64,000 nucleotides of DNA, from positions 1-64,000 of the forward strand of contig JBIKLL010000001.1 in assembly GCA_044359815.1 (NCBI GenBank), read 5' to 3'. The notes under the pieces were generated by a model, which saw only the letters and a program-made list of their open reading frames with translations, made no database searches and was not told the origin of the DNA. The stretch comes from Pseudobdellovibrionaceae bacterium (GTDB taxonomy: Bacteria > Bdellovibrionota > Bdellovibrionia > Bdellovibrionales > Bdellovibrionaceae). Shown here in pieces: positions 14,123 to 64,000 of this stretch. The first letter of the stretch is position 1. Each line of letters begins with the position of its first letter. The position numbers and the translations under genes are program-made.

Positions 14123-15268
14123 CTACAGGTGTTCAGGGATGCTGACGCTCAGTGCATGAAATTCTGCAGGCGATAACCAGCTGTCGTTGGCCAAAAAGTT
14201 TGCCGCAGAAACTTCAGGCGACAGAGCTTGGCAAGAATTGTTAAACAAAACCTGTGCAGATCCCCGTTGCATGCAATATGGGTTTTCCAGTGAACCTAAA
14301 TGCGTAGCCACTGCTGAAGGAGTTGAACTGATCGCAGCTGCTAATGAAGCACATAGATCAGCATACTGAGTGCAAAATCCATTCAATCCAAAGTTTTCAA
14401 TCAATGCAGTGGAAACTTCAGTGCGCTTCATCAAATACATGGCAGCTTTTGCAGCCACTCTGTTGGCAACAAAATCAGTATAAATCACTAAAGCCGTGTC
14501 ATCAGTCGCAACAGTGTCGCAGGTTCTGGTAACACCAAATGCTGCCGCTGTTCCATTGTAAAACATGGACTGACCGCTCCACAGATTACCCTGTTTTCCG
14601 ACGTGCAATCTGATTTTTTCTGGGTCTTCAGGTTTATTCACATTGCATTTTAAATCTGTGATTGTGATTTCGCTGCTCCAATTGTTTTTATCAGCATAAT
14701 TAACCTTGATGTCCATTTTACCACCACGGCTATCGGATTTGTCCTTTTCCAATAATCCAATATCAAACTGCAAGGCATAGCTTTCAGGCTTGGCAGAAAC
14801 CAAACCCACAGGCTTTGAGTCTTTGATAACCAAAAAATCAAACTCATCGTAGCTTTTTTTAATGTATTCAATGGTCAGATTTTCTTCGGCTATCGTCACA
14901 GTTCCTGAAGAATTATCAGCAGCACCTCTTAAATCATAGGCCACCTTATTTACGATCTGGTGAGTGAATGACACAGCACCCTTACCCAACTGCAAATAAG
15001 CCCTGATTAATCGTGGCTGGCATTCGATAAAATCAACGCCCTTGCAAATATCATCATCGCTAGTTTTTGATGCTACCACTGCTGTCCCCACACCGGCACC
15101 AGTGTCAGTGATTGATTCAGGAACATAGTCTTGCTCTACTGTTTTCAAGTTCACTGCCATTGTCGTCACAGCATCGTCCCCGCCTCCTTGTTGTTTTTTA
15201 CCACAACCAATCAGCATAGTTGCTATGGTCAATGACAGGACGGAAAGTTTTAAATTCTGATAGTTCAT
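14123..15268 (-). CDS. Cys-rich lipoprotein of unknown function
   Basis: Lipobox LIGC; GGAGG RBS; divergent from the ECF operon. Confidence 0.8.
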   Translation of the reverse strand: MNYQNLKLSVLSLTIATMLIGCGKKQQGGGDDAVTTMAVNLKTVEQDYVPESITDTGAGVGTAVVASKTSDDDICKGVDFIECQPRLIRAYLQLGKGAVSFTHQIVNKVAYDLRGAADNSSGTVTIAEENLTIEYIKKSYDEFDFLVIKDSKPVGLVSAKPESYALQFDIGLLEKDKSDSRGGKMDIKVNYADKNNWSSEITITDLKCNVNKPEDPEKIRLHVGKQGNLWSGQSMFYNGTAAAFGVTRTCDTVATDDTALVIYTDFVANRVAAKAAMYLMKRTEVSTALIENFGLNGFCTQYADLCASLAAAISSTPSAVATHLGSLENPYCMQRGSAQVLFNNSCQALSPEVSAANFLANDSWLSPAEFHALSVSIPEHL

Positions 15269-15335
15269 TTGAACCTCCTAAAGGTTTAAATTTCTAATGC
15301 AGTTAATGATTCAATTTCGTTTGCTTTCAAACACT

Positions 15336-24733: not shown

Positions 24734-25762
24734 ATGAAGAATTTGCTGCCAATGTTTGCTTTATCCATTGGATTATTAATTCCACAGGCTCAAGCCAAAA
24801 AGTTTTATCCAATATATATTAGTCCTTCTGATCTGGCGCTTGAGCCAGAGGTCACAGATATTTACGCAAAACTTAACGTTAAATTATCCGACGATCGTTG
24901 GAATTTTGTAACAGTCGGACGGCAGGACAAATATGTTCAAATCGAAAAAATTGTCGTCGATATGATGATGGATTTAAAAAAATCTGTATTAAATCAAACT
25001 CCAGCCTACGTGCCTGGCTCAGAACAACTGTTTAATCATTTTAACGCCTATAAACCTAATTATTCCTCATTGATAAAAATTGATGGAGTTCTGAATTTTA
25101 TCACGGGAGCCTTATTGTTAATGCCCCCAGGTCCAGGTTTTTTTATGACCGAGACAGGATCAAAACTACGAACAATCTTTTCGAAGTTAAGAAAAAATCC
25201 CACAGATAAAGCAAATCTTGAAAACTTAAATCACAACGAAAAAGAGTTGTTATCGGCCTATATGGGCGGATTGCTATGGAGACTCCGCGGCGGTGGTCTT
25301 TTAAAAAAGAGAGGCACTCAGCATATCAGAACATTTTATATCGGCTACGGTTTTCAGTCCCTCGGTAAGCTTGTGAATAAAAACATCGAAGAAATCACCC
25401 ACGCCTATCAATCCCAATTAGTTTATTATGGATGGGGAGAATTCTTTGATATCGGGTACAACCCAGCGCAAAGATCAGAAACCTATGACATGGTTAAAAT
25501 GACTGAACGAGGCCTGATCCAAGTTCGAACCTCGCTGCCCTATTTGAGGGATTTGAAAGGTCGCAGGGATACCCTGATTGCTTCAGGTTTACAGATGGGT
25601 CCTTGCTATTTTTGGTCTTGGCAAGAATTTAAGGGAGTTCAAGAATACCCCGAATTACAGCCGCCGTTTAGACCCTTTCTGCACGGATTCCCAACAAGCT
25701 GGGGTGAAGTCTGCACAGGCGCGGCCCTAGGCATCGGGCTTTACCGAACCTTCGCAAAATAA
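24734..25762 (+). CDS. secreted hypothetical protein
   Basis: GAGGGG RBS; signal peptide ending AQA. Confidence 0.8.
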   Translation: MKNLLPMFALSIGLLIPQAQAKKFYPIYISPSDLALEPEVTDIYAKLNVKLSDDRWNFVTVGRQDKYVQIEKIVVDMMMDLKKSVLNQTPAYVPGSEQLFNHFNAYKPNYSSLIKIDGVLNFITGALLLMPPGPGFFMTETGSKLRTIFSKLRKNPTDKANLENLNHNEKELLSAYMGGLLWRLRGGGLLKKRGTQHIRTFYIGYGFQSLGKLVNKNIEEITHAYQSQLVYYGWGEFFDIGYNPAQRSETYDMVKMTERGLIQVRTSLPYLRDLKGRRDTLIASGLQMGPCYFWSWQEFKGVQEYPELQPPFRPFLHGFPTSWGEVCTGAALGIGLYRTFAK

Positions 25763-25807
25763 AACACAACTGCGGAAAAGCAAGAGCGCAAAACGGACGA
25801 TTAAAAC

Positions 25808-26197
25808 CAACGGCATTTAGATTTTATATTTTTAAATATTTCTTTGTTTCTATACCTTTTGAATACTTGCTAACGGCCGCAAGCTCATCTCTCGTATTGC
25901 ATAAATGCAAAGACAATTTGTTTTTACTGTTTTTAGACACATGCAGCGAGCGCGCGGGGCATATCTGGTGTTGAGTCATTTAGATTAATCAGTTTTATGA
26001 TAATTTATTAATCGTATTACTGATTAATCTAAATGACTCAATACGAGAGATGAGCCCGCGGCCGTTAGCGAGTGTCTAAAAATAGTGAAAAAAATTATCT
26101 TTGCATTTACGCAACACCAGATATGCCATGCGCGTCCGCAAATGTATTCAAAAGGTATAGAAACAAAGAAATATTTTTTAAAATCTAAATGCCGTTG
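25808..26197. repeat. about 390-bp nested inverted-repeat (rod-like) element E1 with two type-B bipartite cores
   Basis: Perfect stems 25808-25826/26179-26197, 25834-25866/26144-26176 and 25971-25993/26019-26041; near-perfect stem 25897-25940/26072-26114. Confidence 0.92.
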
Positions 26198-27154
26198 TTA
26201 GGCGCCGTCGGTTTTAAGATCGCAGTGGTACTGGTTGCCAACCTCGATCTGCACGGTTGAATGGTGAATGTGGTATTTTTGATTCATGGTCTGGGTGATA
26301 GCCTGGATCACTTTGTTTTCGGGATCAGCCTGTTTGATCACAACGTGGGCCGATAACGCCACATCATTGGAACTCATTGCCCAGATGTGCAGATCATGAA
26401 CCTCAACAACTGAGGGTATTTCACTGATGGATTGTTTCACTTTTAATGGATCAATATGGCTTGGCACTGCATTCATCACAAGTTTAAGTGATTCTTTAAG
26501 TAAACCCCATGAACCCCATAAAATCACGGCACAGATAACCAAGCTGACTGCTGGATCGATCCAATTCACCCCGGTAAAATGGATCAGAACTCCTGCTGCT
26601 ACTACACCCGCTGAAACCAAGGCATCTGCCAGCATATGCCAAAAGGCTCCCTTTAAATTGAGATCTTTGTGGGCATCCCTTGAAAATAAAAATGCAGTGA
26701 AGGCGTTGACCACGATTCCGATTGCAGCCACCCAAATCATTAACTCAGTCTGTACAGGGGTTGGGTTTAGTAAACGCTGAAAGGCTTGCAGCAATAAGGC
26801 CCCTGTTAGCACCGAAAGCGTCAGTCCATTGATGAGTGCCGAAATGATAGAGGATTTTTTAAATCCAAAGGTGAATCTGGAACTGGCTTTACGATTTGAA
26901 AGCCAAAAGGCCCCCCAAGCCAAAATCAAACTGCCCACGTCACCCAAATTGTGACTGGCGTCTGAAATCAAAGCCAGAGAATCAGAACTGAATCCAGCGA
27001 TGAATTCTATGATTACAAAACTTAGGTTTAATAAAATCCCCGTAAAAAACAAGGCATTGTAGTTACTGACTTGGTGATGGTGATGACCGTGATGACTGTG
27101 GTGATGGTCATGGCTATGGCTATGATTATGATCGTCTTTGTGCTTTACCGGCAT
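26198..27154 (-). CDS. cation diffusion facilitator (CzcD/ZitB-like metal exporter)
   Basis: His-rich N-terminus; SLALISDASHNLGD, HMLAD and VHDLHIW motifs. Confidence 0.94.
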   Translation of the reverse strand: MPVKHKDDHNHSHSHDHHHSHHGHHHHQVSNYNALFFTGILLNLSFVIIEFIAGFSSDSLALISDASHNLGDVGSLILAWGAFWLSNRKASSRFTFGFKKSSIISALINGLTLSVLTGALLLQAFQRLLNPTPVQTELMIWVAAIGIVVNAFTAFLFSRDAHKDLNLKGAFWHMLADALVSAGVVAAGVLIHFTGVNWIDPAVSLVICAVILWGSWGLLKESLKLVMNAVPSHIDPLKVKQSISEIPSVVEVHDLHIWAMSSNDVALSAHVVIKQADPENKVIQAITQTMNQKYHIHHSTVQIEVGNQYHCDLKTDGA

Positions 27155-63829: not shown

Positions 63830-64000
63830 CGGCTAATTTGAATTTTAAAAAAATATTTCTATGATTTCACATCTTGTGAATACATCCAGCGAGCGCGACG
63901 TTTAATTTACCGCCGCATATCTCGTGTTACGTAAATGCAAAGATAATTTTTTTCACTATTTTTAGACACTCGCTAACGGCCGCGGGCTCATCTCTCGTAT
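63830..64000. repeat. element E5: inverted second copy of E1, truncated by window end
   Basis: 63930-64000 is the exact reverse complement of 26041-26111; 63830-63929 is a diverged homologue of the reverse complement of 26112-26194. Confidence 0.92.

Follow-up and report, generated by a model that had tools for sequence, protein, structure and literature searches.

The Palindromic Locus and Its Flanking Genes

The window analysed here is a stretch of 64,000 nucleotides from a bacterium of the Pseudobdellovibrionaceae. Two of its genes are convergent, and the gap between them is filled by a long palindromic element. The left flanking gene (24734..25762, plus strand) encodes a protein of 342 aa with no family match, and the right one (26198..27154, minus strand) encodes a cation diffusion facilitator (CDF) transporter (TIGR01297, E 6e-79); both genes read towards the element. 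The right tip of the palindrome (26198-26215) provides this CDF transporter gene with its last five codons and its stop codon.

An initial annotation of this DNA had described a rod-like palindrome of 390 bp at 25808-26197. The palindrome is real, with an extent that is slightly longer (approximately 25790-26215). When the sequence is read to the base, the order announced for the plus strand, A-X-B-Y-C-loop-C'-X'-B'-Y'-A', is present, with X (25869-25899), Y (25941-25973), X' (26039-26069) and Y' (26112-26143) all matching the sequence. Folds of both strands also bear out that X faces Y' and Y faces X', and that neither faces its own complement. A search for inverted repeats pairs the arms A/A' (25834-25866 with 26144-26176) over 33 nt at 100% complementarity, X/X' over 43 nt at 86%, Y/Y' over 31 nt at 84%, B/B' over 38 nt at 84% plus 23 nt at 87%, and C/C' over 42 nt at 86%, the outermost inverted pair being 25790-25826 with 26179-26215 (37 nt, 78%). 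Folded as single-stranded DNA, each strand forms one rod, of -136.4 kcal/mol for the plus strand and -133.6 kcal/mol for the minus strand. The corresponding shuffle means are -44.1 (sd 4.2) and -43.2 (sd 4.4), that is, z = -21.9 and -20.4, and none of 100 shuffles folds as stably as the element on either strand.

A Family of Single and Nested Hairpin Units

The genome, a short-read bin of 2.95 Mb in 125 contigs (91% complete, no contig below 2.5 kb), contains 99 places that match the element, many of them at contig ends (81 matches in a both-strand search). Identity to the query is 80-95% in the query orientation and 70-80% for the same places on the other strand, a drop which indicates that the element has polarity. 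Scanning for the modules X, Y and B yielded 289 matches in 91 clusters. The order described by the initial annotation, X-B-Y..X'(-B')-Y', recurs in 37 clusters (12+10+8+7), and at contig ends about a dozen more have it in part. In 11 clusters the arrangement is a simple one, A-X-hairpin-Y'-A', 10 of them free-standing and the remaining one a composite fragment at a contig end; in this form X is followed by one hairpin and then by Y', and X pairs with Y'. The basic unit of the family measures approximately 235-285 bp and is composed of arm A, X, a variable hairpin, Y' and arm A'.

The units fall into two subfamilies, one in which an X with AAG goes with a Y' with ATG and another in which an X with GGG goes with a Y' with CCG (26/26 aligned units). 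Read on the minus strand, the segment 25900-26111 is collinear, arm to arm, with free-standing units of subfamily 2. The inner unit is of the GGG/CCG type in all 28 aligned composites, and the outer X is of the AAG type in 26 of these 28. The element in the window combines two units, one of subfamily 1 on the plus strand and, in the tip of its central hairpin, one of subfamily 2 on the minus strand; the opposite strands of the two units account for the swapped order of X and Y. A 'long' composite (4 complete and 3 partial copies) consists of a whole simple unit, its own A-type arms included, inverted inside the tip of another unit's central hairpin. The composite in the window is the same nesting with a shorter and more diverged inner unit. 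What had been taken for a single purpose-built bipartite device is, then, a pair of ordinary units from a family with about 100 copies, one nested inverted in the other; the free-standing single units and the second, independent kind of nested composite also count against one device.

The outer unit starts with the left arm A (25790..25868, plus strand), whose inner 33 nt pair perfectly with A' and whose outer part is more diverged, and continues with its GC-rich module X1 (25869..25899, plus strand), ending in the core CATCTCTCGTATTG, which occurs 119 times in the genome. The stretch B is made of two pieces. The proximal one (25900..25920, plus strand) is the left-hand stem of the central hairpin that belongs to the outer unit itself, as can be seen in copy C5, where this small hairpin has nothing inside and may be either an empty site or the result of a deletion. 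The distal piece (25921..25940, plus strand) is an arm of the inner unit and, from the alignment with free-standing units, a diverged counterpart of arm A. Then come Y2 (25941..25973, plus strand), the reverse complement of the Y' of the inner subfamily-2 unit, with the core CATATCTGGTGTTG (87 occurrences in the genome), the central 65-nt hairpin C/C' of the inner unit (25974..26038, neither strand), with a variable, covarying stem around a kept loop, and X2 (26039..26069, minus strand), which is the X' of the initial annotation and carries GGG in place of the AAG of X1. In B' (26070..26111, plus strand) the distal part forms the other arm of the inner unit, and the proximal part forms the right-hand stem of the hairpin at the centre of the outer unit. 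The outer unit is completed by Y1' (26112..26143, plus strand), identified from folds and alignment as the pairing partner of X1, and by the right arm A' (26144..26215, plus strand), whose tip overlaps the end of the CDF transporter gene. The composite is found once more, in the opposite orientation, at 63836..64000 (minus strand), where it is cut by the end of the window; on the contig it extends to approximately 64200.

Invariant Modules, Covarying Stems and the X:Y' Helix

Conservation along the composite is very uneven. Expressed as mean pairwise identity among the 28 full composites, it amounts to 0.986 in X1, 0.989 in X2' and 0.964 in Y2, to 1.00 and 0.989 in the distal B pieces and to 0.85 and 0.93 in the proximal ones; the segment 25916-25940, which contains the distal B, has no differences among the 28. 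The arms A reach 0.81 and 0.83, the central hairpin 0.58, and Y1' 0.76, this last module carrying, in roughly one copy in three, a mini-hairpin insert of 13 nt. Altogether, the X, Y and inner-arm modules are 96-100% identical across copies, and no two copies are identical, the closest pair reaching 96% in the variable parts. The 13-nt insert of Y1', which is capable of forming a mini-hairpin, stands in place of CATG in the GC-rich part (for instance in C106 63686-64064 and C9 2818-3197); the copy in the window is without it (approximately 26126).

The central hairpins come in length classes of 26, 42-43, 65 and 77-81 nt (59 units, 4 of them from metagenome contigs), and in the 65-nt class the loop is kept and the stem varies. 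Among 26 units of this class, 17 of the 49 stem pairs have changed on both sides, in a total of 87 cells. Related sequences can beat shuffles without any structure, a caveat for the 0 of 500 shuffles that reach this value, and the slid controls, with at most 6 pairs and 11 cells, argue against that effect here. One-sided changes of the G-U type are rare (4 cells versus the 87 cells of double changes). That the variable stems pair perfectly suggests selection for pairing. The distal B arms form an imperfect pair of which both partners are fixed, and this indicates that there is no automatic arm-to-arm correction in the modules.

The initial annotation had called for a comparison of the unpaired positions of the helix across the copies of the genome, and they turned out to be fixed: the mismatches C.T, C.C and A.C of the X:Y' helix (read on the X-to-Y' strand) recur in 26, 25 and 26 of the 26 aligned units, respectively. 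Each of the three involves one base, and they lie 3-4 bp apart, beside a poorly paired GC-rich region. In the same helix one pair covaries (T:A to C:G, in one unit) and another separates the subfamilies. X and Y' are not mirror copies of each other (12 of 17 positions alike in the shared part), and with the mismatched helix and the poorly paired junction this makes the two strands of a unit fold differently. The Y-to-X' strand folds better, with -48.9 versus -42.5 and -53.0 versus -43.4 kcal/mol. The other non-Watson-Crick cells of the stems, counted on the X-to-Y' strand, are A.C/C.A in 24 cases and G.T/T.G in 6, events which are not independent of each other, and these same cells would be tolerated wobbles on the Y-to-X' strand. 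That the X:Y' helix may be a recognition site for a single-strand enzyme of the attC or HUH type is a reasonable inference.

With regard to the loop of the central hairpin, it is flipped relative to X/Y' in 2 of the 13 aligned composites that have the 65-nt hairpin (C93 11059-11429 and C13 32655-33023), something that an occasional inversion between the stem arms would produce.

Placement of the Copies

The position of the copies was examined with crude ORF-based gene calls for the 53 module clusters located at least 400 nt from a contig end. Among these, 34 lie between convergent genes, 16 between tandem genes and 3 between divergent genes, and none lies inside an ORF; as a background, 402 of the 2488 intergenic gaps are convergent. 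With a strict pattern for the common arm end, 20 ends were caught; a gene runs into 13 of them, and in 10 of the 13 the stop codon ends 2-19 nt before the terminal motif. The orientation of the copies is associated neither with the local GC skew (17/14 vs 14/14, n=59) nor with the direction of flanking tandem genes (8 vs 7, one fragment omitted), so there is no sign of strand-specific insertion.

The elements end with a loose TA[GA][AC]TGGCCCAC-like motif, yet this is their least conserved part, and there is no empty site from which a target duplication could be defined. The idea that the outer arms are always local palindromes derived from the target was rejected, the flanks of the same locus pairing at 9.8 of 24 positions and those of different loci at 8.6. 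Pairing of the flanks beyond the family boundary exceeds the 95th percentile of cross-locus pairs at 8 of 42 loci, and palindromic arms derived from the target hold, at most, for a minority of loci, such as those on C104, C7 and C26. The copy on C26 (approximately 14880-15325) is truncated and lies within a locus-specific inverted repeat that is unique in the genome; the 16-nt exact core of this repeat is found at only those two places, and its flanks align over approximately 55 nt.

Distribution and Orthologous Loci

A sequence search of 60 relatives returned only two matches, of 24-27 nt and at chance level, and a covariance model of the unit found no match in 100 genomes of the same family. 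Exact-pattern scans gave none in a collection of species genomes and none in viral contigs, and no match to plasmids or phages was obtained with blastn. A known palindromic family or an Rfam family had been considered as a possible identity of the element, and none matches: the best Rfam score is 38.4 bits, the gathering score being 58.6, and the models below threshold are only generic ones of miRNA hairpins.

Eight short contigs carrying the element were recovered from one metagenome assembly. Their flanks are 87-96% identical to loci of the present genome, which identifies them as orthologous loci of a related organism, a lake bacterium, and the element is present at all 8 of the loci recovered. 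In one of them, L050, a complete composite of the same order is bridged to unique flanks on both sides. This arrangement is therefore not an artefact of one assembly, and the misassembly that the initial annotation had feared is contradicted by the recurrence of the order in an independent one.

Differences between the interiors of orthologues have to be read with care, since the invariant modules are about as long as a short read and an assembler may thread the wrong interior or orientation through them. With this caution, the interior is inverted and has a different central hairpin in L057 with respect to C49, L050 is a composite and C110 a short inverted form, and L055 and C6 are composites of the B type and the long type, respectively. 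In the pair L054 and C113 the central stem differs at 11 of 20 positions, fully compensated, and L052 and C87 differ in the presence or absence of the 13-nt insert. The column-wise comparison comprises 3 of the 8 pairs, the other five having been dropped because rearrangements make columns meaningless; in these three collinear pairs, 248 of 257 positions agree in the modules and 2382 of 2595 in the flanks.

Concerning the locus in the window, the sequencing runs that contain it are all labelled as lake-water metagenomes, with at least half of the locus words in 6 of them; no RNA run containing it is among the 24 public runs listed. The public contigs that map to the locus run from either flank into the arms with no difference from it, break off at 25863 and start again at 26150. 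None of them bridges the element or contains an empty-site joint, so that they neither confirm nor deny the interior. Since no empty site, excised form or identical copies were seen, nor any target duplication, and since all 8 orthologous loci are occupied, recent movement of the family is not shown.

Candidate Enzymes and Other Mobile Genes

The initial annotation had suggested a search for a tyrosine recombinase, an HUH enzyme or an IS110-type enzyme that co-occurs with the element. HUH/Y1 genes are present, none of them linked to the element, and no IS110 enzyme was found. The nine matches to PF01797 (Y1/HUH) are the only abundant candidate enzymes in the genome, in which the search found 0 IS110, 0 DDE_Tnp_1 and 0 TnpB. 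There is one rve match, on contig C40, which is without X or Y modules, and there are two tyrosine recombinases, the nearer at approximately 7 kb from a unit and the other on a contig without units.

Most of the Y1 matches belong to a 206-aa gene with 8 copies (C23 201-821, C48 48177-48797, C56 2969-3616, C47 11964-12584, C49 93331-93951, C100 633-1253, C125 2378-2998 and C8 23373-24056), whose proteins are 86-92% identical to that of the C23 copy. The conserved unit is formed by the gene and approximately 100 nt upstream, with no shared downstream ends. No X or Y motif is found near these copies and none of them adjoins a unit. The same gene is multi-copy in 33 of 60 relatives that are without the element, with up to 24 matches in one genome.

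The only RAYT-like gene of the genome (C8 9501-10136, 211 aa), which is one of the nine PF01797 matches, fits NF047646 at 72.5 bits, under the cut-off of 80. The only other multi-copy ORFs are HNH endonuclease/DUF222-like genes in two families of 3 and 4 copies (C19 532-1965, C48 29396-30406 and C8 4038-5252; also on C107, C17, C34 and C35); in the Pfam scan, one member of an HNH family has a weak DUF222-like N-terminal part. A link of these genes to the element was rejected: two of the 7 are within 800 nt of a copy, which was judged to be chance, as the copies follow gene ends. No ORFs lie between the X and Y' modules, and those enclosed by adjacent copies appear from their sequences to be ordinary host genes. 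It is important to note that a cognate gene between two repeats would assemble below the 2.5-kb floor of the bin, which makes the absence of an enzyme weak evidence.

Comparison with Known Repeat Systems

The palindromic units of BIMEs are of the Y and Z types. In enterobacteria, accounts of these elements describe mosaics of REP types with linkers (PMC3333891, PMC2817692). The family studied here resembles them in being a modular mosaic, with two types of palindromic unit facing each other, alternative linkers and several architectures. It differs in that BIME units alternate side by side, whereas here a whole unit lies within the hairpin tip of another, and there is no sequence similarity.

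REPINs, in the accounts that present them, are REP doublets which form hairpins and are accompanied by RAYT transposases (PMC3116915, PMC3337134); one of these accounts describes their ends as conserved, hairpin formation as the sole requirement on the spacer, and compensatory changes as frequent (PMC3116915). As far as those descriptions go, the likeness is considerable: two conserved inverted end modules, one long hairpin with a variable and compensating spacer, an extragenic location, about a hundred copies, and orthologous sites that are occupied in a related genome. There are also clear differences. X and Y' are distinct sequences and not mirror images, the units have extra arms of approximately 75 nt and they are nested. 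X, Y and their complements are without the GTAG or CGTC of REPs and could form local hairpins of only 4-5 bp, and the only RAYT-like gene of the genome is flanked by another repeat, of 34-40 nt. With both the REP tag or self-hairpin and a flanking RAYT missing, the family is filed here as REPIN/BIME-like and not as a member of either family.

Correia/CREE, ERIC and RUP are bacterial MITEs with the potential to form long hairpins. The present units are like them in size, non-coding nature, palindromic shape and location at gene ends, and unlike them in that no conserved terminal inverted repeats, target duplication or parent insertion sequence were found and that conservation peaks inside the element, not at its ends. 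To integron attC sites and to the end hairpins of IS200/IS605 the likeness is that of an imperfect hairpin with fixed irregularities which could mark the active folded strand. The family is, however, without the R/L boxes, the cassette array and the integrase of integrons, its units standing singly behind unrelated genes, and in comparison with IS200/IS605 its X:Y' helix is much longer and there is no transposase gene between the ends.

Origin and Role of the Element

The element is probably a nested composite of a lineage-restricted, non-coding, hairpin-forming and non-autonomous repeat, REPIN/BIME-like, which would have spread as a folded single strand with an enzyme provided in trans. As a selfish or semi-domesticated repeat it is of a familiar kind, and it forms a new family. 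With a subfamily-2 unit inverted at the hairpin tip of a subfamily-1 unit, the composite has multiplied as a whole. The units would spread as folded single strands; an enzyme acting in trans, most plausibly one of the HUH/Y1 type, would recognise their X:Y' helix and may tell the two strands apart by its mismatches, and in the stems only the ability to pair would matter. The copies may now serve as 3'-end hairpins of convergent genes, or be tolerated as such; such a two-way hairpin for the flanking genes is likely to be a side effect or a secondary role of the element.

Several points weigh against this reading of a spreading repeat. No enzyme is linked to the family, and the single RAYT lies between copies of another repeat; conservation is lowest at the termini, unlike in a classical transposon; all 8 shared loci are occupied and recent movement is not shown; and near-invariant modules in old copies could reflect selection for a host function or gene conversion. 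This last point leads to the strongest rival, a host-maintained element, namely a two-way hairpin at the 3' ends of genes (terminator or mRNA stabiliser) or a site bound by a host protein or with an architectural function, whose modules would be held by selection at each locus whatever their origin. The copies begin a few bases past stop codons and fill convergent gaps, and the intergenic gap in the window has no other terminator-like site, the single one in the scanned region (26287-26310) lying inside the CDF gene. The modules are near-invariant even though the closest copies differ by at least 4% elsewhere, and their agreement in the three collinear orthologous pairs is above that of the flanks, with all 8 loci occupied. 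Such preservation of the modules is too good for copies that are old and dead, unless gene conversion maintains their uniformity. Even so, we consider a host-maintained element unlikely. No T-run follows the stems, so that they are not canonical intrinsic terminators, and a fixed asymmetric sequence of approximately 100 nt is far beyond the needs of a terminator; the nesting and the several architectures point to a replicating entity; and, as it was found neither in the 60 relatives (by sequence) nor in the 100 genomes of the family (by covariance model), the role cannot be ancient.

The common occurrence of single units which have one helix and the same modules, and the fact that the two helices of the composite belong to two subfamilies that also occur separately, render the reading of the initial annotation distinctly unlikely, namely that of one designed element with two equivalent helices, working in both polarities for an attC, tyrosine or IS110-type recombinase. 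In favour of that reading, both strands of the composite show one unit in the Y-to-X' orientation, the one that folds better, and the mismatch positions are fixed; against it also stand the finding of no IS110 enzyme, the presence of just two tyrosine recombinases, neither of them adjoining a unit, and the dispersal of the units, with no cassette arrays. The strong covariation and the conserved loop would suit a gene family for a rod-like structured RNA, as would the surplus of mismatches that would be G.U on one strand. This explanation is nonetheless highly unlikely: no Rfam family matches at threshold, one-sided changes of the G.U type occupy 4 cells and double changes 87, the orientation is random with respect to flanking transcription (8 vs 7), and no promoter-like site rises above shuffles. 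Finally, a misassembled collapsed repeat can hardly be at the root of the structure, given that the same order is found in 37 clusters, that L050 bridges both flanks in an independent assembly and that the junctions X-B-Y, Y-C-X' and X'-B'-Y' are each 110-125 nt long. The genome is a short-read bin of 125 contigs, many of which end in the repeat, and the public contigs stop within the arms, which fits a misassembly; the assignment of a particular central hairpin and orientation to a particular locus cannot be guaranteed.

To return to the spreading repeat, a more specific version of it may be proposed, which we regard as rather doubtful. The X:Y' helix would be the strand-selective site of an enzyme acting on single-stranded DNA, the units would prefer hairpin tips as targets, and the family would be inherited vertically without an adjacent RAYT. 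Insertion into hairpin tips would produce both kinds of self-nesting, the preference for convergent gaps and the palindromic flanks at a minority of loci.

A seemingly designed device of two polarities can be explained as a hairpin repeat nested in another copy of the same repeat. The family is also a natural dataset on what a hairpin-reading enzyme or the host needs, with approximately 145 nt of asymmetric sequence fixed and the stems free as long as they pair. It adds a REPIN-like family for the Bdellovibrio-like predators, for which none was described in the literature searched.

It also illustrates how a single small genome may contain two hairpin-repeat families with no relation to each other, a RAYT being in view for only one of them. 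In the second family, the RAYT-like gene sits between inverted repeats of 34-40 nt starting GAAAAGAGACCGTACGAC (C8 9474-10291; locus L049 1175-1992). This repeat is separate from and unrelated to the one described above, and it has 64 matches, mostly as inverted pairs 100-330 nt apart which enclose variable interiors.
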